Source: a virus
Taxonomy: Duplodnaviria > Caudoviricetes
IMG/VR virus record: IMGVR_UViG_3300037461_000186
Span: 1-40,560 of that record
DNA length: 40,560 nucleotides
Direction: 5' to 3' (one strand)
The notes under the pieces are model-generated. The model searched no databases, had not been told where the DNA came from, and saw only the letters and a program-made list of their open reading frames with translations. Numbering within the stretch: position 1 is the first letter of the stretch; each line of letters starts with the position of its first letter. This document shows positions 12,282-38,024 of the stretch, piece by piece. A program made the position numbers and the translations under genes.

Positions 12282-13535
12282 GTGAAGTTCGACGCTTTCA
12301 TCGGCGGCAGCTACCAGTCGCAGGCGGTGACCGCCGATCAGGAGCGTACCGTCAACTGGTATCCCGAGCTCCTCGAGGCCCCCGGTGCGACCGCGAAGGC
12401 GGTGCTTTACCCGACCCCTGGCGTCCGCACGCTGTCCTCCGCTGGGCGCGGGAACGGGAGGGCGCACTTCGCGCTCAACGGCCGCGAGTTCGCGATCCTG
12501 GGGACGACGCTCTACGAGATCGACTCGGCTGGGGCTCTCACGCCTCGCGGGTCGGTCGCCCAGGACGCGAACCCGGCGACGATCTCGTCCAACGGTGAGG
12601 GCGGGAATCAGCTCTTCATCACCTCGGGCCGGAACGGCTACGTCTTCAACCTGACGAACAACAACCTGCAGCAGATCACGGCGCTGAACGGGAAGGCGAC
12701 GCAGGGGGCGCACCTCGACGGCTACTTCCTCGCGCTCGACGCGGTGACGGCGACCCTCTACATCTCGGACCTGTACGACGGGGCGACGTGGCAGACGGGC
12801 ATCCAGTTCGCGCAGCGTTCCATCGCGGCCGACCGCTGGGTGGCGATGGCGGTGCTCGGGCGCTTCCTGTGGCTCTTCGGGGAGAGGACCTCTGAGGTCT
12901 GGTACAACACGGGCGCGGTCTTCCCCTTCGCGCCGCACCCCTCGGGCCTCATCCACTACGGCATCGCGGCGCCGTTCTCGTCCGCGATCATGGGCGACTC
13001 GGTGATCTGGGTCGGGCAGACGGCGAGCGGCCGGCGATGCGTGCTCCGGGCTCAGGGGTTCACGCCGCAGCCGATCAGCACGAAGCCGCTCGAGGCCGCG
13101 CTCGCGGACTACCGCGGCGTCTCGGGTGCGGTGTCGGACGTGTACTCCGACGCGGGGCACACGTTCTACCTCGTGTCGTTCGACCGGGACGGGGTGACGT
13201 GGGCCTACGACGACGCCACGCAGATGTGGCACGAGCGGGGGACGTGGATTCCCCAGGAGTCCAAGTTCACGGCCTGGAGGCCGAGGTACTACGCCTGGTC
13301 GTTCGGCCAGCATCGGATGCTCGACGTGGGCAGCGGCGCCGTGTACGAGATGGCCCGGGACGCGACGACGGACGTGGACGGGCTGCTCATCAGGCGGCTG
13401 CGCCGGGCGCCGGCGATCAGCAACGAGAACGACCGCGTGTTCTACGCCTCCTTCGAGGTGGACATGGAGCCGGGCCTGGGGCTGGACCGGCCGAAGCGGG
13501 CGCGGTTCAGCATGAACGGTGTGAGTGGGGTCTGA
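12282..13535 (+). CDS. P22 gp10-like tail hub / DNA-stabilisation protein, N-terminal part
   Basis: RTVNWYPE, LYPTPG, LDGYFL, LWLFGERTSEVWYNTG, GHTFYLVSF, TWAYDDATQMWHER, IRRLRRAP, FEVDMEPGLGL. Confidence 0.8.
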   Translation: MKFDAFIGGSYQSQAVTADQERTVNWYPELLEAPGATAKAVLYPTPGVRTLSSAGRGNGRAHFALNGREFAILGTTLYEIDSAGALTPRGSVAQDANPATISSNGEGGNQLFITSGRNGYVFNLTNNNLQQITALNGKATQGAHLDGYFLALDAVTATLYISDLYDGATWQTGIQFAQRSIAADRWVAMAVLGRFLWLFGERTSEVWYNTGAVFPFAPHPSGLIHYGIAAPFSSAIMGDSVIWVGQTASGRRCVLRAQGFTPQPISTKPLEAALADYRGVSGAVSDVYSDAGHTFYLVSFDRDGVTWAYDDATQMWHERGTWIPQESKFTAWRPRYYAWSFGQHRMLDVGSGAVYEMARDATTDVDGLLIRRLRRAPAISNENDRVFYASFEVDMEPGLGLDRPKRARFSMNGVSGV

Positions 13536-24974: not shown

Positions 24975-25285
24975 ACGTCTACTGCGTGCTGTCCGAGATG
25001 TTCGAGGACGGTGGTTCCGGCTACGAGCCGCCCGAGTGGGCGCGGATCGCCGTGATCGTCGCCGCACCGTCTCGGGGCCGCGCCCGCTATCTCGCCGTCC
25101 GAAGTGACCGTTCGTTTCGTCGCTACGGGCCTAGAGACTGGCCGAGGCTGTGGTGCAAGCGCATAGGTCAAGGACTGCTGCGCGAAGGCGTGCTGGGCTC
25201 CCCGGAAGAGGACAAGTGGTGGCCTCGGCTAGAGGGCTGGGACCCGGCCCGGCGCCGGCACGACCGCGGCGAGGGGCAGCTCTAG
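24971..25285 (+). CDS. Hypothetical protein
   Basis: ATGA-coupled; MNVYCV..IVAAPSRGRARY. Confidence 0.55.
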   Translation: MNVYCVLSEMFEDGGSGYEPPEWARIAVIVAAPSRGRARYLAVRSDRSFRRYGPRDWPRLWCKRIGQGLLREGVLGSPEEDKWWPRLEGWDPARRRHDRGEGQL

Positions 25286-26644
25286 GTGTGCGCGTACTCG
25301 ACCTCTTCTCAGGGATCGGCGGCTTCGCCCTCGGGCTCGAGTCCGTCGGATTCCAGACCATCGGGTTCTGCGAGATCGAAGCATTCCCCCGAGCAGTGCT
25401 TGCCCACCACTGGCCCCACGTCCCCATCCACGACGACGTGCGGACCCTCTCAGCCGAGTCTGTTCCCTGGCTGCGAGCCGAGGCCGAGCGAGGCATCGAC
25501 CTCATCTGCGGAGGATTCCCCTGCCAGGACATCTCGGTCGCGGGGAAAGGGGCAGGACTCAGCGGGGCCAGATCGGGGCTTTGGCGCGAGTGCTCCCGGC
25601 TTGTGGGGGAGCTTAGACCCCGTTGGGCACTGTTTGAGAATGTCGGTGCTCTCAAGCAGCGAGGCATTGACCGGGTGTGCTCGGATCTGGAGGGCCACGG
25701 CTACGCCGTCTGGCCGCTTCTGGTGGGTGCTGGCGTCGGCGTCGGAGCGCCCCACCGAAGGGACCGAGTCTGGATCGTGGCCCACCGCCAGAGCGGAGGA
25801 CAGCGAGTCGGCGGGAGCGCATGTCACGCGGGGGACTGCGGAGACTCTGACGGCGGCGGCACGGGACTGGGCCACGCCCAACACGATGACGGGCGGGCAG
25901 ACGAGCCGGGGCGGGGACAGGAAGGGGGAACTGCTGCTCGGTGGTCAGGTGCGTCGGAGTTGGACAACTCCGACGCAGGACGACGCGGGCGGGAGGGCGA
26001 CCCGGTACAAGCAGGGCGGGACGAGCCTGAGCGCCCAGACTCAGCGGTCGGCCTGGCCGACCGCCACCAGCCGGGACTGCGTGTCGAGCGGGGCAGCGAA
26101 CTACAGCACGGAGTCGGGGCGGCACAGCGGGACGACGCTGACCGACGCGGCGAACGGCCTGTGGGCGACGCCGGCCGCAGCGGATCACAAGAACTGCGGC
26201 GGGACTGGAACCAGCGACTACAAGACCTTGCCGGGGGATGTACTCCGCGCTGGCCTGCTCGACCAGGGGAGCCCCAGCACGACTGGGAAGAGCCGAGACT
26301 GGCCTACAGCACGGGCCGGAACCGACACGCTAGTGGGCGGCACGGGGAATCTGGCCCAGCTCCGGGGAACGGAGCTGGCAAAGGGGATGGGAAACAGGGG
26401 GTCGCTGAACTCGCGTTGGGTAGCGCAGTTGATGGGCTACCCGTCGGACTGGTGCGCGAGCTCGCTGCTCGACACGGCCTCTCGGAAGCTTTTGTCGCGG
26501 AGTGGTGGACGCGCAATCGCCTCAAGGTCGAAAGGGCGCACAACCGGGACGCGCTCAAAGCCTACGGCAACTCGGTCGTCCCGCAAGTCGTCGCCATCAT
26601 CGGCAAGGCCATCCTCGAAGCGGACAGGGAGCAGCGATGAGTAG
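25286..26644 (+). CDS. Overlapping alternative-frame ORF: putative second (beta-like) methyltransferase chain; true start probably internal
   Basis: Six W(P/A/T)T(P/A) repeats and LNSRWVAQLMGYPSDW, which resembles motif IX. Confidence 0.65.
   Translation: MCAYSTSSQGSAASPSGSSPSDSRPSGSARSKHSPEQCLPTTGPTSPSTTTCGPSQPSLFPGCEPRPSEASTSSAEDSPARTSRSRGKGQDSAGPDRGFGASAPGLWGSLDPVGHCLRMSVLSSSEALTGCARIWRATATPSGRFWWVLASASERPTEGTESGSWPTARAEDSESAGAHVTRGTAETLTAAARDWATPNTMTGGQTSRGGDRKGELLLGGQVRRSWTTPTQDDAGGRATRYKQGGTSLSAQTQRSAWPTATSRDCVSSGAANYSTESGRHSGTTLTDAANGLWATPAAADHKNCGGTGTSDYKTLPGDVLRAGLLDQGSPSTTGKSRDWPTARAGTDTLVGGTGNLAQLRGTELAKGMGNRGSLNSRWVAQLMGYPSDWCASSLLDTASRKLLSRSGGRAIASRSKGRTTGTRSKPTATRSSRKSSPSSARPSSKRTGSSDE
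25288..26640 (+). CDS. C5-cytosine DNA methyltransferase, catalytic (alpha-like) chain
   Basis: Motifs I (DLFSGIGG), IV (GGFPCQD), VI (ENV), VIII (PHRRDRVW) and X (LKAYGNSVVPQ). Confidence 0.85.
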   Translation: MRVLDLFSGIGGFALGLESVGFQTIGFCEIEAFPRAVLAHHWPHVPIHDDVRTLSAESVPWLRAEAERGIDLICGGFPCQDISVAGKGAGLSGARSGLWRECSRLVGELRPRWALFENVGALKQRGIDRVCSDLEGHGYAVWPLLVGAGVGVGAPHRRDRVWIVAHRQSGGQRVGGSACHAGDCGDSDGGGTGLGHAQHDDGRADEPGRGQEGGTAARWSGASELDNSDAGRRGREGDPVQAGRDEPERPDSAVGLADRHQPGLRVERGSELQHGVGAAQRDDADRRGERPVGDAGRSGSQELRRDWNQRLQDLAGGCTPRWPARPGEPQHDWEEPRLAYSTGRNRHASGRHGESGPAPGNGAGKGDGKQGVAELALGSAVDGLPVGLVRELAARHGLSEAFVAEWWTRNRLKVERAHNRDALKAYGNSVVPQVVAIIGKAILEADREQR

Positions 26645-26738
26645 CCTCGACGGGGTGGTTGCGGGCCTGGTGCTCTGGGCGGTCATCGTGGCGCTGGAGC
26701 TCGCGTGGCTGCTCAAGCACGGGCGCAGGAGCCGATGA
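26637..26738 (+). CDS. Small membrane peptide (33 aa)
   Basis: ATGA-coupled on both sides; VVAGLVLWAVIVALELAWLL. Confidence 0.45.
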   Translation: MSSLDGVVAGLVLWAVIVALELAWLLKHGRRSR

Positions 26739-27406
26739 AACCCTACTTTGATGACGGGCAGTGCGTGATCTACCACGGGGACTGCCGGGAGATCCTGCCG
26801 GGACTGTGGGCTGATGTGGTTGTGACTGACCCGCCGTATGGAATAGGTGCTGACGTGCGGCAGGCGGCGCGAGCCAACAAACAACATGGGCGAGCGTTGG
26901 CTCCGAGCAGTGACTACGGATTTACTGCATGGGATAGCACGCCTCCTGACGCAGAGACATTCGCTGCACTGCTCCGGTGTGCTCCCTACTCAATCATCTG
27001 GGGCGGCAACTATTTTGCCCTAGCCCCATCCCGCTGCTGGTTGGTCTGGGACAAGGACAACGGAAAGAACGGATATGCGGACTGCGAACTAGCGTGGACA
27101 AACCTTGACAGAGCAGTGCGCCGGTTGCGATATCGCTGGATGGGTATGCTCCAAGAGCCGGGCGTTGAGCGAAACATCCGAGAGCATCCTACACAGAAAC
27201 CTCTAGCGGTGATGCGCTGGGCGATCCAGCAGGCACCAGCCGAGTCTGCAACCGTCCTCGACCCTTTCATGGGCAGCGGCACCACGCTCCGGGCCGCTAA
27301 GGACTTGGGCCGGCGAGCCATCGGGATCGAGATCGAGGAGCGGTATTGCGAGATCGCGGCGAAGCGGCTGGCTCAGCAGGTTCTCCCGCTGGAAATTTCT
27401 GGCTAG
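26735..27406 (+). CDS. Beta-class N6-adenine/N4-cytosine DNA methyltransferase
   Basis: IYHGDC, VVTDPPY, HPTQKP, VLDPFMGSGTT, GIEIEERYCEIAAKRL. Confidence 0.9.
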   Translation: MKPYFDDGQCVIYHGDCREILPGLWADVVVTDPPYGIGADVRQAARANKQHGRALAPSSDYGFTAWDSTPPDAETFAALLRCAPYSIIWGGNYFALAPSRCWLVWDKDNGKNGYADCELAWTNLDRAVRRLRYRWMGMLQEPGVERNIREHPTQKPLAVMRWAIQQAPAESATVLDPFMGSGTTLRAAKDLGRRAIGIEIEERYCEIAAKRLAQQVLPLEISG

Positions 27407-27411
27407 ATGGC

Positions 27412-27430
27412 TAGACATGTGTGCTACACT
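27412..27430 (+). promoter_or_regulatory. Short-spacer promoter-like motif (sense)
   Basis: TAGACA-TGTGTGC-TACACT, which also contains an extended -10 TGn. Confidence 0.45.
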
Positions 27431-27865
27431 GCCGTTGACGGCTCACGTCAGACGGACCTCCGGCTCAGTGGTTGCTGAGCAGGAGGGGCACGGCGGGGGC
27501 CACCGAGAGCAGGTCGGTGACAGACAGATCATACCACAGCCCGTCAAGCCGACAAGCCCTTGGCCGCAGTCTCTCTGCGCTGGCCGAGCGGAACCAGAAC
27601 GCGAGCGCATCAAGTCGAGGCCGTCAAGCCTCGAGCAGTCAGCACACCGCAAAGCTCTCTTCCCCTTCGGGGGTTCTCTCCCGGGCAACGGGCCGGTACT
27701 CGATCCGGCATACGCCATACGTCCCGGTCGCAAAGGCATCAGACAAGCAGAGCTGCAAGCGGACCACCTCAGACTAGTACCGAGGGGAGGTGGTGGTGTC
27801 GGCTGTCGTCCCCGCTTGGGGGGTATGCCCAAGGGAATGGCGGGAGTCCATCTGGGAGGGGGCAA
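27431..27865 (+). ncRNA. Candidate large structured RNA or RNA-primed replication origin
   Basis: At least 10 stems found by eye, including a C(UUCG)G hairpin at 27662-73 and a long-range 8-bp helix 27547-54/27797-804. No convincing ORF. Confidence 0.55.
27528..27547 (-). promoter_or_regulatory. Short-spacer promoter-like motif (antisense)
   Basis: The minus strand reads TTGACG-GGCTGTGG-TATGAT, with an extended -10 TGn. Confidence 0.5.
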
Positions 27866-28123
27866 GTGAGCATCAGGCGTGAGGACCGACCAGGCTACGC
27901 CGAGGCGATCTGGAGCGAGTTCTGCTCCCGGGCAAAGCACGAACGAATCATCAGCCCCGCCGAGTTCCGGCTGGTGGAACGCTGGATGGAGCAGGGCATT
28001 CCGCTGCCTGTTGTGTTCCGCGGCTTCGATGACTTCCGCGACCGACCCCGGCGGCTCGAGGCGATGGAGCTCCCGGTGCAGAGGGCTTACGAGTACTGGT
28101 TTCAAGCGATGGGGGGCAGATGA
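27866..28123 (+). CDS. Small DnaD/DnaB_2-like protein, putative replication or helicase-loading factor (85 aa)
   Basis: SD GGAGG; ISPAEFRLVERWMEQGIPLPVVFRGF matches the lSp.e...i..W...g...evv pattern of DnaD C-terminal domains. Confidence 0.5.
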   Translation: MSIRREDRPGYAEAIWSEFCSRAKHERIISPAEFRLVERWMEQGIPLPVVFRGFDDFRDRPRRLEAMELPVQRAYEYWFQAMGGR

Positions 28124-28187
28124 GGCTGCGGGGCCAGGCGCAGGGGTTGCCGAGCGGGACGGAAGACTACGTCGCGGAGGTGATCAT

Positions 28188-28586
28188 TTGATCAAGCGGC
28201 GCAAGCCCCTCCGACGAGGCAAGCGGACCTCGGCGCGCAAGAAGTCCCGCATGGCCCTCCGCAAGGAGTGCGACCGCCGCTTCGCCCTGGCGATCAAGGC
28301 GAGGGACGGCTGGCGCTGCGTGATGTGCGGGCGCACGCAGGGAGTGCAGTGCGCGCACCTGATCTCCCGGCGCTACCACGCAACGCGCTGGATGCTGGGC
28401 AACGCTGTCACGCTCTGCGCCTCGTGCCACCTGGGCGGGCACATGGACCCGTTGAGGTTCGAGGACTGGTGTGTGGCGCGACTGGGCGAGGCTGGGTGGG
28501 CCGAGCTCCGTGCGATCGCGAGGAGGGGGACGCCGTGGGTGGACTACGAGGCGGTGCTGAAGACGCTGCCGAAGGAGGGGGTATGA
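28188..28586 (+). CDS. NinG/Rap-like HNH endonuclease
   Basis: TTG start with SD GGAGG; RDGWRCVMCG...QCAHLISRRYHATRW..NAVTLCASCH. Confidence 0.75.
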   Translation: MIKRRKPLRRGKRTSARKKSRMALRKECDRRFALAIKARDGWRCVMCGRTQGVQCAHLISRRYHATRWMLGNAVTLCASCHLGGHMDPLRFEDWCVARLGEAGWAELRAIARRGTPWVDYEAVLKTLPKEGV

Positions 28587-31359: not shown

Positions 31360-32760
31360 ATGCGAGCTCTCGCTGTTGCCCTCTGCCTCGCCCTCGTCGC
31401 GGCCTGCACTCCGAAGCGTCCCCCGAAGCCGCCCGAGCCCCCGCCGCCTCCCGTCAAGGAGGCGAAGTTCCTGAACCTCCTCGTGCGCCAGGAGGCCGGC
31501 GGGACGCTAATGAAGGGTGGACAGCCGTGGAAGCCCTTCGGCTTTGTGCCCTGCTGGGACGGCGAGGAAGTCGATCACATGGGCTGGCCCGGGATCGACG
31601 ACGCCGGGATGGACTACGCCTTGCAGTACGGGGCCGACGCCTTCCACATCAGGCTGGGGCCTTTCACGCGGGACGACAAGTGGCCGAACGGTCTGAACGC
31701 CGGTAGCTCGGCCTACATCGACGACGACCCGGCCAAGGGGTTCAACCCAGCGTGGTGGGCGAAGGTCAGGCGCATCGTCGAGCGTGCGGGCCAGCGCGGA
31801 GCCGTCGTCGAGGTGGACCTGATCGACGGATGGCAGTGTCGGCACGCGACCCCGAAGGGCGACCCCGGATCGGTGCCGCACCCCTGGAGCGCGGCTGACC
31901 TCAACGCCTGCGCGAACACGCTCACGCCGACCCATCGGGACTGGCTGCGGAAGATCGTGGACGAGGTGGGCTGTTTCGGGAACGTCATCTGGCAGGACGG
32001 GAACGAGATCGGCATCAACGCCTCGTACAAGCCAGCGTGGTCCTTTGCCATCCGAGACGTGATCCGCGAGGCCGAGCAGGAGCTCGGGTGCGGAGTCGTC
32101 CACCTCTTCGGGACGAATAGCGGTCACGCGGACGTGGAGTCCGACCCGCGCATCGACTACACCGTGACTCACCAGCGTGCGGGCGTCTCGGGGCCGTACT
32201 ACGGGAAGCACCGGATGAACAACGAGCGCAACCCGCCATTCTTGCCGGATCAGGAGCACGCGCTGTGGTGCGCGGCTCGAGAGAACGGCGCCGCGACGTG
32301 GTGGTACTGGCGCGGTGGAACCCACAAGGACGAGATGAGCGACACGCTCGCGCTTTGGCAGAAGGGCTGTGAGGGGATGGGGGGCGGTGACTGCCCCTTC
32401 GAGGTCCCGGTGCCAACCGTGATCCGGGTCAAGCCTCACGGGACCGACTACTACGACGCGACGCCGCTCGTGCAGAACTTCACCTACTGCCGCAGCATCG
32501 ACTCCGACCGCTCCCTGTGCCCCGTGCGCCCCGAGGGGGACCCCTTCAGGGAGCCATGCGAGCAGTCAGCGATGGGCTCTCAGATCCAGTGGTGGCTCAC
32601 TGATGTCGAGGGCGACCTCGGGATCAAGGTCAGCCACCGCGGGTACGGCGTAACGGTGACGGGGCGTGGGAAGGCTCGGCTCCGCTGCACCTTCGCCACG
32701 GCGAACGGCGAGGACAAGTGCTCCAACGCGCAGGGCGGCGAGCTGTGGGTGAGCCGATGA
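31360..32760 (+). CDS. Lipoprotein with a clan GH-A (GH5-like) TIM barrel and a Cys-rich C-terminal domain
   Basis: SD GGAGG; signal MRALAVALCLALVAA|C; Pro linker; FNPAWWAKVRRIVERAGQRGAVVEVDL; NVIWQDGNE (acid/base); MNNE (possible nucleophile). Confidence 0.65.
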   Translation: MRALAVALCLALVAACTPKRPPKPPEPPPPPVKEAKFLNLLVRQEAGGTLMKGGQPWKPFGFVPCWDGEEVDHMGWPGIDDAGMDYALQYGADAFHIRLGPFTRDDKWPNGLNAGSSAYIDDDPAKGFNPAWWAKVRRIVERAGQRGAVVEVDLIDGWQCRHATPKGDPGSVPHPWSAADLNACANTLTPTHRDWLRKIVDEVGCFGNVIWQDGNEIGINASYKPAWSFAIRDVIREAEQELGCGVVHLFGTNSGHADVESDPRIDYTVTHQRAGVSGPYYGKHRMNNERNPPFLPDQEHALWCAARENGAATWWYWRGGTHKDEMSDTLALWQKGCEGMGGGDCPFEVPVPTVIRVKPHGTDYYDATPLVQNFTYCRSIDSDRSLCPVRPEGDPFREPCEQSAMGSQIQWWLTDVEGDLGIKVSHRGYGVTVTGRGKARLRCTFATANGEDKCSNAQGGELWVSR

Positions 32761-32984
32761 CGGACCTCGTCCGCGCCGGCTACGCCTCGAAGCGGAAGAT
32801 GACTCCGCAGGAGGCCGCTCTGGTGATCGAGATGCTCCGCGATGAAGCACGGGCCTGGGCCTCGAGGTACTCCCGGCTGTGGTGTGCGGTGGACGACTAC
32901 CTGCGCTGCCTGCCTGGGGACAAGGTGCGCTACGGGACGAGGCTCAAGCAGGTCGCGGGCAAGCGGAAGGAGTGCAGGCTGTGA
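32757..32984 (+). CDS. Hypothetical protein
   Basis: ATGA-coupled. Confidence 0.5.
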   Translation: MTDLVRAGYASKRKMTPQEAALVIEMLRDEARAWASRYSRLWCAVDDYLRCLPGDKVRYGTRLKQVAGKRKECRL

Positions 32985-33307
32985 GCACACCGATGACGGG
33001 TCGTCCCGATCTTCCGGTCGTCGTGGACACGCCAGCCCGCCTCGTGACGGTAACGAAGCAAAGCGGGGCGCCGGACGTTCGGATGTTCGACGCCTCCGCG
33101 GTCAACGCTTCGATCGACAAAGCCATGAGCACGCTGGCACCCGGCGAGAAGGTCGCGGCCATCGTGTACGTGGATCGGGACGGGGCCAACCTCGCTTTCG
33201 TCGGAAAGCTCAAGGCGCCGGTCGGACAGGCGTCATGGACGGTGGTCGGCACCAAGCGTTGGGATGGGGACTGGCAGGCCAGTGCCGCCCTGCGCTGGGC
33301 CATTTGA
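32981..33307 (+). CDS. Hypothetical beta-rich protein
   Basis: GTGA-coupled. Confidence 0.5.
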   Translation: MSTPMTGRPDLPVVVDTPARLVTVTKQSGAPDVRMFDASAVNASIDKAMSTLAPGEKVAAIVYVDRDGANLAFVGKLKAPVGQASWTVVGTKRWDGDWQASAALRWAI

Positions 33308-33317
33308 GGGAGGTCGA

Positions 33318-33623
33318 ATGGACTGGATGGAAGTCGGACTCACGGCCCTGACGGCGCTCACGCCGGTCATCACGATGATCCTCGTGTGGGGCTTCAAGCT
33401 GATCTGGAACAAGATCCCGGCGTCGATCGTGCTGGTCGCCACGCCGATCTTCGGGGCACTCGTCAACTTCGGCCTGCTCTGGATTCAGGGTCATGCCGGG
33501 TCCTTCCACCCGCTGGTCGGGGCCGCGCTCGGCGTCCTCGCCATCGCGCTGCGTGAGGTCATCACCTCGCTGCAGACGAAGGGTCTCACGGGCTCGGTGT
33601 CGCAGACGAACCGGATGCTGTAG
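33318..33623 (+). CDS. Putative holin (three transmembrane segments)
   Basis: SD GGAGG; three hydrophobic segments; lies in the lysis region. Confidence 0.55.
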   Translation: MDWMEVGLTALTALTPVITMILVWGFKLIWNKIPASIVLVATPIFGALVNFGLLWIQGHAGSFHPLVGAALGVLAIALREVITSLQTKGLTGSVSQTNRML

Positions 33624-33626
33624 CCC

Positions 33627-33950
33627 GTGCCCGCGCTTGAGCTTCGGGACGCACTCAGCGTCGTGACGGCCATCCTGACCGTGGCTGGGGTGGTCTTTGC
33701 GCTGCGGGCCAGCGTCTCGAAGCTCGAAGCGGGGCAGACGGAGATCGTCCGGCAGGTGGCTGCGCTGCACAAGCGGCTCGATCACTACGGGGACCAGATC
33801 GTGGACCTGAAGGAGAAGCACGGAAGGCTCGACGAGCGGATCAAGAGCCTGAAGGAGTCGCAGTCGTTCCGGTTCCGCACGAAGCTGGCGAGGGTCGAGG
33901 CGGCCGCTGCCGGCGAGGCGCCGATGTTCAGCGACGAGGACGAAGAATGA
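33627..33950 (+). CDS. Membrane-anchored coiled-coil protein (lysis-associated?)
   Basis: N-terminal TM segment followed by heptad repeats. Confidence 0.55.
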   Translation: MPALELRDALSVVTAILTVAGVVFALRASVSKLEAGQTEIVRQVAALHKRLDHYGDQIVDLKEKHGRLDERIKSLKESQSFRFRTKLARVEAAAAGEAPMFSDEDEE

Positions 33951-34306
33951 GTCACACATCGAACGACGACATCATGGTGGCGCTCGATGACATGCGTCGT
34001 CACATCAACGGCCGCCTCGACGACCACGAGCGTCGGATCAACTCTCTGGAGCCAGTCAAGGGCCAAGTACATCGGCTCATCGAGCACGTTGCCGAGATCG
34101 GCGGGAGACAGACGGTCATTCTCGAAAGGCTCGAAGGCATGGAGAGACTCGTCAACGACGCGTTGCGGAATGCGGCCAAGGATCTCACGGTGCAGCTCGC
34201 GGCGACGGTGCGGGCCGAGCTGCATGGGCTGCGGGACGAGATGGGTGCGCTGCGCGACGACATCCGTCAGCGGCCGTGCTTCAGAACCGGGGAGTGTGAG
34301 CGATGA
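33947..34306 (+). CDS. Coiled-coil hypothetical protein
   Basis: ATGA-coupled; ends in RPC.....C. Confidence 0.55.
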   Translation: MSHTSNDDIMVALDDMRRHINGRLDDHERRINSLEPVKGQVHRLIEHVAEIGGRQTVILERLEGMERLVNDALRNAAKDLTVQLAATVRAELHGLRDEMGALRDDIRQRPCFRTGECER

Positions 34307-34512
34307 AGCGGCTGATCCAGTTCTTCGAGTACAAGCACCTGCCCCCGAACTTGCAGGAGGTCAGCAAGCCGTTCGCCCAGATGGCGCAGGTGCTCATGGC
34401 GAAGCTGCCCGAGAACGCGGAGAGCACTGTGGCGATGAGGAAGCTGCTGGAGGCGAAGGACTGTGCGGTGCGTGCGGTGCTCTACAAGGAGGAGCGTGAT
34501 GGCTTCGCGTAG
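34303..34512 (+). CDS. Conserved small phage helical-hairpin protein, possible Acb2/Tad1-like nucleotide sponge
   Basis: QFFEYKHLPPNLQEVSKPF...PENAESTVAMRKLLEAKDCAVRA. Confidence 0.5.
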   Translation: MKRLIQFFEYKHLPPNLQEVSKPFAQMAQVLMAKLPENAESTVAMRKLLEAKDCAVRAVLYKEERDGFA

Positions 34513-35389
34513 GCTGTGGCTGTTCGGACTGGCTTTGCTGCTGTGCCTGCCGCTGATCGGGAGCGGGCAGAGCATCAACTACTACCCGGCGGGTGGGGCT
34601 CCAACCACGACAGGAGGCAGCAGCTTCTTCGCTGGCGGGATCTCGCTAGGGAACACGTTGGCGAGCCCCTACGCCAACCTGTACGGGGACGCCGCCAACA
34701 CTCTCGCCCTGCGGAATGGGGCGAATGCCCAGACGCTGAACGTGTACAACACGTTCACGGACGCCGGCAACTACGAGAGGGCCGAGCACATCTGGTCTAG
34801 CAACATCTACAGAATCGTTACTTCCAAGGCTGGAACTGGAACCACTCGGAGCCTGTGGCTTGGCACGGACGGGACTGGAAGATGGGGTATCGAAGCTAGC
34901 ACAAATGCTTTTTACCCTCTGGCAAACGATATCTACGACCTCGGGTATGGTCCGGCCACGATGAGTGGGCCGAGGAACTTCTTTGTAAACCGCTCCACCC
35001 AAGGCTCCAAGACCAAGGCCCTGACCGAGGGAGCAGCCACAGCCGTCACGCAGATCGCGGTGCCGCAGACGGCCGGCTCGAACTTCGCCGACGCCACCAT
35101 CGAGTGGGTCGTCTACGCCAGCGACGGCACGGACTCGCAGACCCTCAAGGGCTCCAGCTACCTGACCGCCGTCAACAAGGCCGGGACGGAGACTTGCACG
35201 GTGGGCGCGGTGGGCACGGCCATCAACGCCGTCTCGGCGGGCACGCTGACCTGCACGGCCTCCTGCGTCACGGGCCTGACCGATGTGGTCCAGTTCGCGC
35301 TCAACTGCACCTCGTCTCTGACACAGACGACGCTGAACGCGCTGGCCCGCCTCGACATGATGCAGCCCAACACCGTCACGCCGCAGTAA
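34499..35389 (+). CDS. Signal-peptide-bearing, tail-fibre-like protein
   Basis: Signal MASRRLWLFGLALLLCLPLIGSG|Q; LYGDAANTLALRNGANAQTLNVYNTFTD..NYER and FYPLANDIYDLG fibre-like motifs. Confidence 0.6.
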   Translation: MASRRLWLFGLALLLCLPLIGSGQSINYYPAGGAPTTTGGSSFFAGGISLGNTLASPYANLYGDAANTLALRNGANAQTLNVYNTFTDAGNYERAEHIWSSNIYRIVTSKAGTGTTRSLWLGTDGTGRWGIEASTNAFYPLANDIYDLGYGPATMSGPRNFFVNRSTQGSKTKALTEGAATAVTQIAVPQTAGSNFADATIEWVVYASDGTDSQTLKGSSYLTAVNKAGTETCTVGAVGTAINAVSAGTLTCTASCVTGLTDVVQFALNCTSSLTQTTLNALARLDMMQPNTVTPQ

Positions 35390-35404
35390 GGAAAGGAACC
35401 TCTC

Positions 35405-35803
35405 ATGCTGAAGAAGCTCGTGCTCGCGCTCGTCGTCGCCCTCCTCGCCTCCGCGGCCTCCGCGCAGACGGTCACATGCTCGGTGTCCGGCCTGAGCGCC
35501 AAGCAGACCGCGCTGCTCACCGACTTCCTCGCCTCCGTCAACGCGCAGCGTGCCGCGCAGACGCCGCCCCTGGCTCCGTTCGCCAACTTCTCTGCGTACT
35601 GCCAGAACCTCGTGGTCGGGGCCGTCCTCGACTACGTCCGGCAGCAGGAGCAGGTGAACGCCGCGAAGGTGGGGGCCGCCGCCACCGCCAACGGTGACCA
35701 GACCGCGCCGAACGCGCAATGCACGGCGGCCGGGCTCGCCAACGGCTGCACGAAGAATCAGGTGGCCTGCTTCGTCCTCACGGGGAACGTGACCTGTAAC
35801 TAG
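35405..35803 (+). CDS. Secreted Cys-containing protein
   Basis: Signal MLKKLVLALVVALLASAASA|Q; 6 Cys. Confidence 0.7.
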   Translation: MLKKLVLALVVALLASAASAQTVTCSVSGLSAKQTALLTDFLASVNAQRAAQTPPLAPFANFSAYCQNLVVGAVLDYVRQQEQVNAAKVGAAATANGDQTAPNAQCTAAGLANGCTKNQVACFVLTGNVTCN

Positions 35804-35804
35804 G

Positions 35805-36290
35805 ATGCTCTACCTCGCCGCCGCCATCCTCGCGGGCATCGGCTCCACGCAGAACGTGGGAGAGCAGAGCCCCGCCTTCGTTCTGGCCGCTGACGCCCGT
35901 CGAGGTCCGGTCCAGGTCGAGGGCTGGCTGACCACGGCGGCGAAGCTGGAGAGCAAGGACGGCTGGTCTACCCGGCTCGGCGCGGATGTCTGGTCCGGGC
36001 CGCTGTCCATCGGCGCGCACTGGGTACACCGTGAGACGAGCCTGTGGCGCAAAGACCGGCTGCTCATCCGGGCCAGCGCAGCGCACGGCCCCCTCAGGCT
36101 ACTGTGCGAGGTCGCCCCGGACTCGCCCAACAGGGAAGTCAAGGGCGAGGTCCGCATCCGCTTCGCCGTCCCGGTGTTCGGAACGAAGCTCGTACTGGAG
36201 CCCCGCTACTTCGTGGAGTCGCACTCCCAGGTGGACATGACGGGCGAGTTCGGCTGGGGTGCGAGTCTGCTCGGAGGGATAGGCTGGTGA
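35805..36290 (+). CDS. Possible small outer-membrane beta-barrel protein
   Basis: Short hydrophobic N-terminus, alternating beta strands, C-terminal GWGASLLGGIGW ending in an aromatic residue. Confidence 0.4.
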   Translation: MLYLAAAILAGIGSTQNVGEQSPAFVLAADARRGPVQVEGWLTTAAKLESKDGWSTRLGADVWSGPLSIGAHWVHRETSLWRKDRLLIRASAAHGPLRLLCEVAPDSPNREVKGEVRIRFAVPVFGTKLVLEPRYFVESHSQVDMTGEFGWGASLLGGIGW

Positions 36291-36637
36291 GACGCAGGGA
36301 CGCCATCACGGCCATCCTCGCCGCCCTCCCGGCGCTGCTCCTCGCCCTGTCCGGCTGGATCAAGGCAGACGGTGAAGCCAAGGCCAAGGCCAAGGCATAC
36401 GACAGCTACGGCGAGTACGTCACGGAGCAGCTCGAGCGCGACGAGGCCCTACTGCGGGCGCTGCGGGACTGTCAGACGTTGCTCAAGAGCAAGCCCGCCC
36501 TGTGGTCGGCCTACATGATGGGCGTGGAGGTTCACACGTCCGGCCCGGTCGAAGGGATGCCGAAGCAGGACGACAGGCAGGCCCAGGTCGTACTCGATGA
36601 GATCGCCCGGCGTGAGGGCTGGGCAGGAGGTAAGTGA
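36287..36637 (+). CDS. Membrane-anchored helical protein (possibly i-spanin-like)
   Basis: GTGA-coupled; RRR followed by TM AITAILAALPALLLALSGWI and a helical domain. Confidence 0.45.
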   Translation: MRRRDAITAILAALPALLLALSGWIKADGEAKAKAKAYDSYGEYVTEQLERDEALLRALRDCQTLLKSKPALWSAYMMGVEVHTSGPVEGMPKQDDRQAQVVLDEIARREGWAGGK

Positions 36638-37538: not shown

Positions 37539-38024
37539 ATGAAGACCTGTAAGGCCAAGTCGAAGAGTACGGGCAAGCAGTGCGCCCGGGCGCCGATCGC
37601 CGGGGGGGAGGTGTGCCGGGTTCACGGCGGCGCCGCCCCCCAGGTGAAGCGCAAGGCCGCGGAGCGGGTCCTCCTCGACCAGGCCATCGTGGCCTTCGGC
37701 CTCGACCGGGCGAAGGACCCCGACCGCCTACTGGCCGAGCTCGGCTGCATCGCCTACGTCAAGACCTCGGACCTGTACGACTCGGACGGCAGGATGCTTT
37801 CGGTCCAAGAGATCAGGGAGCGGGCGCCGCAGGCCGACGCCGCCATCGCCTCGCACGAGGTCGTCACAGGGAACGTGGACGCCGCGGACGGTAAGCGTGA
37901 CCGCCTGGTCAAGGTGAAGCTGCATGACAAGGCCCGCATCCTCGAGATGCTCGCCAAGCATCACAGCCTCTTCGAGGACAAGGTGAAGCACGAGGGCCGG
38001 ATCGAGATCGGCTGGATCAAGTGA
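37539..38024 (+). CDS. terS: Terminase small subunit with an N-terminal HGG-type Zn module
   Basis: CKAKSKSTGKQC...CRVHGGAAP; LAELGCIAY...DLYDSDG; KVKLHDKARILEMLAKH; directly upstream of TerL. Confidence 0.75.
   Translation: MKTCKAKSKSTGKQCARAPIAGGEVCRVHGGAAPQVKRKAAERVLLDQAIVAFGLDRAKDPDRLLAELGCIAYVKTSDLYDSDGRMLSVQEIRERAPQADAAIASHEVVTGNVDAADGKRDRLVKVKLHDKARILEMLAKHHSLFEDKVKHEGRIEIGWIK

Follow-up and report, generated by a model that had tools for sequence, protein, structure and literature searches.

Replication origins that depend on RNA are known from plasmids and from tailed phages. The plasmid system is that of ColE1/pMB1 (RNA II and RNA I; Rfam family RNAI). In the passages covered, RNA-dependent origins were reported for mycobacteriophage parABS prophages (Wetzel et al. 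2020, PMC7157519), a promoter-dependent RNA-DNA hybrid was described to prime phage replication at the R-loop origins of T4 (PMC3016281), and ARRPOF, GEBRO and PAGEV, covarying motifs of 223–349 nt that could be RNA or single-stranded DNA, were tied to replication regions (Weinberg et al. 2017, PMC5737381); ARRPOF appears also in the part covered of PMC12641628.

The locus described here lies in a complete 40,560-bp tailed phage genome with direct terminal repeats (DTR), the whole of which was analysed and is called the window. The predicted layout of the locus resembles that of ColE1/pMB1, with a long structured transcript for which no terminator was called, a facing promoter for a ~90-nt three-hairpin antisense RNA with variable loops across the 5' end, a purine-rich 3' part and no recognised origin-binding protein. 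Unlike ColE1/pMB1, it has a conserved 50-nt tertiary core and no sequence or model match to that system, its antisense layout belongs to one subgroup and comes without an antisense terminator, a DnaD-like helper is kept, and the carriers are tailed phages of Planctomycetota and Acidobacteriota. The mycobacteriophage origins are likewise found in tailed phages and, in the passages covered, consist of a transcribed non-coding region of 400–500 bp in place of RepA, so the statement in the preliminary description that no such tailed-phage module was known is not supported; unlike the present element, they serve the plasmid-prophage state beside parABS, and these passages describe neither a structure nor an antisense RNA (PMC7157519). 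ARRPOF, GEBRO and PAGEV are analogous to the element but, as far as the source was covered, plasmid-borne and from other phyla. Unlike this phage, T4 encodes its own replisome. To our knowledge, the T4 R-loop origins have no conserved folded core. Phage replisome organisers and O-like initiators share the DnaD-like C-terminus, but their N-terminal DNA-binding half is missing here, with the structured element in its place.

Genome and boundaries of the module

Genes for portal, capsid, ejection, terminase, NinB, NinG-like and methylase proteins were recognised in the window, and the runs best containing it were wetland metagenomes. In agreement with the preliminary description, which saw no initiator, primase or helicase, a search of the complete genome found no DnaB or other helicase, DnaG-type primase or full initiator, and no Pol A or other polymerase and no tyrosine integrase either. 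No tRNA was found and no parA/parB was recognised in the window.

The features of the module are listed in Table 1. Identity with the nearest relative, L001 (with L002; 87% identical), began exactly at 27401 and that with run X13 at 27398, and the genes upstream differed; small-share DNA runs such as X13 served for sequence variants only. The left edge of the module appears to be an exchange hotspot.

In the slot directly upstream (26735–27406 in the window; 222–2423 in L001), the window has an N6/N4 methylase and L001 an unrelated methylase fusion of 733 aa, and in X13 the slot is empty. Within 25150–26644 of the window, a 452-codon ORF matching phrog_1008 lies across a C5 methyltransferase gene (25150–26640) in a different reading frame, and L005 showed the same overlap (934–1959 and 1103–1879). 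This arrangement presumably recalls two-chain methylases with an alternate-frame subunit.

Table 1. Features of the module in the window, with strand and basis of assignment.
Feature	Position	Strand	Basis
Left boundary of module, two GGCTAGA copies 8 nt apart	27401–27416	+	shared identity begins there
Predicted sense promoter, extended −10 only, start ~27437	27420–27430	+	score 7.9; uncalled by promoter scan
Predicted antisense RNA of ~90 nt with three hairpins, no support for 3' end	27432–27521	-	z −3.4
Hairpin 1	27432–27455	.	unchanged in L001, hence no covariation
Predicted ~400-nt structured RNA, candidate pre-primer	27437–27845	+	inferred from promoter position and covariation
Hairpin 2, hypervariable loop, candidate specificity loop	27457–27486	.	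L001 differences; third loop sequence in X13
Hairpin 3	27499–27521	.	L207 same stem, other loop; L021 other stem
Antisense sigma-70-type promoter-like site, TTGTCG-16-TATGAT with TG	27528–27555	-	promoter scan
Hairpin	27559–27588	+	identical in L001; similar stem in L207
Window-specific hairpin with second CCGTCAAGCC	27615–27634	+	replaced in L001; not conserved
Helix 27653–58/27749–54 closing core domain, side hairpin 27662–73	27653–27754	+	compensatory change in L001
Family-defining core, ~50 nt	27681–27730	+	covariation; model R1 66.5 bits, sole match in window
P1	27681–85/27723–27	+	covariation
P2, 8-nt loop 27697–704	27692–96/27705–09	+	covariation
Long-range pairs	27698–27722 and 27699–27730	+	mutual information
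Invariant pairs	27702–03/27728–29	+	inferred
Hairpin 27763–70/27787–94	27763–27794	+	other complementary stems instead in L001, L021, L028, L207
Conserved purine box AGGGAAKG (AGGGAAK), candidate RNA-DNA hybrid or primer-end region	27832–27839	+	member scan
85-aa ORF, C-terminal DnaD-like domain of phage replication initiators, standing alone	27866–28123	+	homology, structure model

Folding and coding potential of the region

As a whole, the 434 nt folded no better than shuffled sequences (z −0.5 on the plus strand, −1.4 on the minus strand), so comparison with relatives had to decide. All hairpins and complementary stretches named in the preliminary description were present at the positions given there, among them TTGACGG, which was able to pair with CCGTCAA. 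The window and L001 differed at eight positions in 27401–27609, seven of them in hairpin 2 (five in the loop, and two forming a compensatory change of a stem pair from A-U to G-C). Three elements of the proposed structure were absent in L001: the closing helix 27547–54/27797–804, the second CCGTCAAGCC (27615–34) and the G6 run 27818–23. With this run lost, no conserved G-tract of the ColE1 type was found, and a different purine box was conserved instead. At the position of helix 27653/27749, other complementary sequences occurred in L021, L028 and L207; in the subgroup of the window, this helix and the hairpins at 27662 and 27763 were maintained by differing sequences.

Open frames of 150, 101 and 187 codons traverse the region, which had been said to hold no credible ORF. 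Protein coding was nevertheless rejected, the frames being unconserved in L001 and core lengths of 49, 50 and 51 nt all being common. Over the element, the longest stop-free run had a median of 77 codons vs 71 in shuffled sequences, and reached at least 130 codons in 12% vs 4% (n = 111).

The conserved core and the purine box

The best-supported part of the element is the core at 27681–27730, which the first reading of the sequence had overlooked, as it had the purine box at 27832–39. In 100 aligned cores, both-sided changes were found in the five P2 pairs and in the middle pair of P1. Since this alignment had been filtered on pairing, the test was repeated on cores picked by loop sequence alone, with a scan that left the paired positions free; 47 of 105 unique cores were excluded for want of the loop motif. 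In this set, the middle pair of P1 was Watson-Crick in 58/58 cores (24 expected), the third pair of P2 in 57/58 (15 expected), and 337 of the 348 covarying-pair cells were Watson-Crick, with 3 G-U vs 2 A-C. Two further pairs, both starting from the P2 loop, emerged from mutual information. The long-range pair A27698-U27722 was kept in 94/94 parsed cores, with a G-C version in 11 separate flank clusters, and C27699-G27730 in 72/94 (36 expected); 15 of 109 cores were unparsed. Among 88 new metagenome cores held out from the analysis, the 81 that were parsed kept P1 in 80, P2 in 81 and the loop-to-TACGY pair in 81, with two G-U and no A-C. These core counts refer to sequences, not to independent events.

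The covarying structure proposed for the homologues was thus found, and the element has a conserved, base-pair-preserving fold that is likely RNA. Because G-U pairs are rare, both RNA and single-stranded DNA are possible. The purine box lay 54–175 nt downstream of the core, with 7–8 of its 8 letters present in 84/113 members and a perfect copy in 40 (1.2 in shuffled sequences).

Distribution of the motif family

A protein pattern led to L021, whose upstream region has short motifs in common with the window, and these led to motif scans. The scans gave at least 119 IMG/VR loci (~160 estimated); a filter for hairpin and pairing retained 80 of 109 rows, and the other 29 were discarded as chance. 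With a more stringent pattern, 34 matches were obtained in GTDB (20 in Planctomycetota, 10 in Acidobacteriota and 4 elsewhere), together with at least 120 metagenome loci (~230 estimated). One copy, L182, is from Paludisphaera soli. With model R1, 49 of 50 records had a single copy and one had two. The family exceeds its counted size, because variants such as L207 escape the search patterns.

In L207 (1508–1580), the P2 loop region has an insertion of ~25 nt and invariant bases are altered. The two-copy record is G023 (13334–13388 and 37937–37994), and L261 and L280 share one contig. In L192, L193, L197 and L203 the motif lay in long Planctomycetota contigs with ORFs downstream that did not look like phage genes; these copies may derive from decayed prophages or from integrated elements of another kind. 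Two of the chance matches, L056 and L094, have in common a different conserved, non-coding-looking stretch, in related phages encoding Pol A.

No Rfam 15 family scored above its gathering threshold in the window and 40 of 113 member loci, so a match to an unrelated known family was not found; the models of ARRPOF, GEBRO and PAGEV gave no match in the window or the 40 loci. An exact search with 16 nt returned only two near-identical loci and 12 chance matches, and blastn against INPHARED (region and one core) and PLSDB returned nothing beyond chance. In the full text of the literature covered, the motif was undescribed. None of five motif strings occurred in six supplementary files of a study of candidate phage RNAs (PMC10690425), of which three more files, the two largest included, could still list the motif uncharacterised. 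The motif defines a new, well-supported family of structured elements.

Predicted promoters and RNAs

The preliminary description had placed a sense promoter at 27412–30, facing an antisense one. The hexamers of the former lie 7 nt apart and form no −35/−10 pair, and what stands is an extended −10 at 27420–30, to which sites at −245 to −267 relative to the core correspond in L001, L066, L050 and L207. The predicted start lies within hairpin 1, which begins upstream of it and for that reason suits the antisense strand better. The antisense site was confirmed and was the sole promoter called in 27200–28300 (0.1 expected). No intrinsic terminator was called at the 3' end of the predicted sense RNA or for the antisense RNA.

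On the minus strand, the ~90-nt segment gave three stem-loops as proposed, with 1 of 200 shuffles equally good, and z was −2.7 to −3.4 for the segment between the facing promoters in the four members tested. A hairpin at the position of hairpin 2 was present also in L021 and L207. Facing sites 95–103 nt apart occurred in the window/L001, L066/L021, L050 and, just below threshold, L207; L058 was without them. The facing pair and the 5' hairpins were retained in these four distant lineages and not family-wide. Scored in the members with sigma-70 weights, promoter-like sites 100–400 nt upstream of the core numbered 24 sense (2.4 in shuffled sequences) and 23 antisense (4.2). Across 86 members, 8 facing pairs (4.7 in shuffled sequences) and 13 back-to-back pairs (3.7) were found, which argues against the facing layout and antisense control as traits of the whole family. 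Since the facing pair recurs only in few lineages, the antisense idea was confined to the subgroup of this phage, where a short antisense RNA is predicted to control the element.

Four metatranscriptome runs held L001-variant contigs over 27401–27704, three starting near 27446–54. They were not taken as proof, because they are unstranded, come from runs found using this stretch and probably from one campaign, and include one contig that extends 20 nt beyond the left edge of the module.

The DnaD-like mini-gene

Among 78 relatives of the 85-aa protein (cluster representatives), many were stand-alone proteins of 79–134 aa. In 14 longer homologues (208–307 aa; 33–51% identity), the 85-aa domain lay at the C-terminus behind initiator N-domains; the N-halves matched DUF1376 in three proteins and initiator PHROGs in 4/4 tested. 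By this homology, the ORF represents the C-terminal half of an initiator without its N-terminal DNA-binding half, here called headless. Pfam gave no match for the protein, Foldseek no significant one, and the ESM Atlas only unnamed clusters. The profile phrog_7498 ('DnaD-like helicase loader') was matched by 8/49 family members (E up to 1; best 1.6e-9), the window protein at an E of 0.12. The structure model (pLDDT 96), compared for the four-helix fold of DnaD/DnaB_2, aligned with 2i5u (Z 5.6, rmsd 2.6, 66/77) and 2zc2 (Z 5.2), and AAA lids were level at 5.6–6.1. The likeness to DnaD rests on phrog_7498 and modest structural scores. The gene of the preliminary description is real and homologous to initiator C-termini.

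The element had been described as coupled to this gene. The coupling is not obligate: the gene was one gene away in L021, with another promoter-like site and a gene between it and the purine box, 6 kb away in G001, and absent from 23/26 near-complete motif genomes. Profiles detected the headless DnaD-like family in G000, G005, G012 and G001, and a second headless family, the C-half of phrog_270/9474, in the motif-bearing phages G022, G026 and G054; headless initiators are probable also in G006, G010 and G043. G001, found solely through its stand-alone DnaD-like gene, bore the complete module in homologous form 6 kb off, as predicted. No motif match was found in G002 and G004 (full or two-gene initiators; 58% and 68% complete), nor in G003 (14% complete), whose stand-alone domain without a motif argues against an RNA-primed origin.

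In L026 (980–1656; a 68%-complete record without a motif match), the initiator was split into adjacent N-domain and DnaD-like genes. A split initiator of this kind is a possible intermediate before loss of the N-domain.

Neighbours and replication genes of motif-bearing phages

The genes downstream of the element varied widely and were at times on the opposite strand, which argues against a regulator of one gene. The neighbours included helicases, a primase, RusA, ParB and methylases. A same-strand gene came next in most members; in L028/L058 both flanking genes were opposite to the element, as was the next called gene in G047 and G036. HNH nuclease genes were often within two genes after the element (L053, L060, L063, L102, L105, L108, L109 and others), which may be normal for a nin region or reflect a means of spread.

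Pol A or DnaG-type primase was encoded in 2/26 near-complete motif genomes vs 9/15 controls (Fisher p 5e-4), the motif genomes not being dereplicated and the controls being unmatched, drawn from chance hits in other hosts and scanned with R1 only in part; a capsid-based search for controls among close relatives gave six short or partial contigs only. DnaB was found in 4/26 and a tyrosine recombinase in 10/26, so phages of more than one lifestyle carry the element. In a subset of eight genomes, at least one had an initiator and one a primase domain.

Several results argue against an RNA-primed origin. Full-length initiators were present in 3/26 genomes (G028, G037 and G038), 6–33 kb from the motif; two of these phages had a DnaB-type helicase and one an RNase H. 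Before inspection, phrog_270 matched 5/26 motif genomes vs 5/15 controls. The GC/TA skew at four-fold sites, compared with the strand of the motif in 15 genomes, had mixed signs and gave no signal. A seed search for the initiator N-terminus gave one weak match in 15 genomes, some of them partial; the initiator ORF of G037 is not among the called genes. In G038 (32500–36500; L382), a full initiator, an RNase H and a primase-helicase fusion are consecutive, 32 kb from the motif.

Proposed function and alternatives

We give about an even chance to the reading that the element is an RNA-primed replication origin, ColE1-like in its working and not a member of the ColE1 family. It would take the place of the origin-binding half of a phage initiator. 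The origin reading is based on the covariation, the single copy, the upstream promoter-like sites, the varied neighbours, the scarcity of polymerases and primases, the headless initiators, the prediction that held in G001 and the precedent described in the passages covered of PMC7157519. What survives of the preliminary origin hypothesis is a structured, covarying non-coding element in the position of a replication module, with facing promoters around variable-loop hairpins, a DnaD-like mini-gene, no replication enzymes found in the genome and no Rfam family; its membership in ColE1 does not.

Under the origin reading, host RNA polymerase would transcribe ~400 nt starting at 27437. The compact core would fold, and the purine-rich 3' part of the transcript would stay hybridised to the template near 27832 as a persistent R-loop, which could be turned into a primer and an open fork by RNase H and Pol I of the host or by its restart proteins. 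The 85-aa DnaD-like protein may then aid recruitment of the host helicase loader, as the C-terminal half does in full initiators. In this subgroup only, the ~90-nt antisense RNA would pair with the 5' hairpins through the variable loops and would limit firing or exclude related phages.

An origin captured by the phage from the ColE1 family itself (RNA II/RNA I) is highly improbable and largely refuted: the layouts resemble each other and the core has a loose linear likeness to a stretch of ColE1 RNA II, but the similar letters form a local hairpin in ColE1 instead, R1 on the ColE1 record reached 6.4 bits at best, and Rfam (RNAI) and PLSDB gave no homology to RNA I/RNA II beyond chance. A compact tertiary fold is suggested by the invariant bases of junction and loop and by the two isolated long-range pairs. 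Such a fold, with a predicted promoter of its own, indifference to neighbours and coexistence with full initiators in 3/26 genomes, would also suit a trans-acting or catalytic RNA of the early region (for instance a ribozyme of a new class or an RNA that binds a protein) without a part in priming replication. We consider such an RNA unlikely, as it leaves unexplained the headless initiators of at least two unrelated families and the scarcity of polymerases and primases, and no terminator was called to delimit a discrete RNA. Candidates judged on general features only, and dropped, were c4/CI antisense, T-loop, group II domain V, REP, attC and oriT.

Control of plasmid rep genes in IncFII or pIP501, and the put sites of HK022, are analogues of an antisense-controlled leader or antiterminator, which here would set the expression of downstream early genes. 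The facing promoters and variable loops, TTGACGG pairable with CCGTCAA, and the next gene on the same strand in most members fit such a leader, and in the window the start codon of the DnaD-like gene lies 27 nt past the purine box and coincides with the end of the 150-codon frame. However, the downstream genes are unrelated among members and opposite in L028/L058 (both flanks), G047 and G036, L021 has a promoter-like site and a gene between box and DnaD-like gene, and the leader frame is unconserved; a leader of this type is quite unlikely. The gene content that speaks for an RNA-primed origin speaks equally for an origin whose fold forms in single-stranded DNA, on the strand that transcription displaces, as a primosome-assembly or primase signal. 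Covarying pairs that are almost all Watson-Crick (337/348 cells, 3 G-U) agree with this, and plasmid motifs found in the same way could be single-stranded DNA according to the passages covered of PMC5737381. We regard a DNA fold as distinctly improbable, since a promoter upstream and another 250 nt of helices suit a transcript. Domains of several helices and lone tertiary pairs are seen more typically in RNA.

Significance

Many uncultured phage genomes have no recognisable replication start, and for a large group of phages that infect abundant soil, sediment and freshwater phyla the motif offers a marker to search with and an answer that can be tested. In its widest form, which is possible though doubtful, the RNA-primed origin reading would make this compact pseudoknotted RNA a new class, a module by which many tailed phages recognise the origin and prime replication. 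The module would have repeatedly replaced the DNA-binding half of unrelated initiators and left their helicase-recruiting halves as mini-genes, and one subgroup would have added an antisense RNA with fast-evolving loops for copy control or superinfection exclusion. Should the element prove not to be an origin, its strongly covarying tertiary core still marks a new RNA family of phages, at hand for structural work and ribozyme assays. As an origin, it would represent an RNA-primed replicon without relation to ColE1, from which vectors could be derived for Planctomycetota and Acidobacteriota, phyla with few known vectors.
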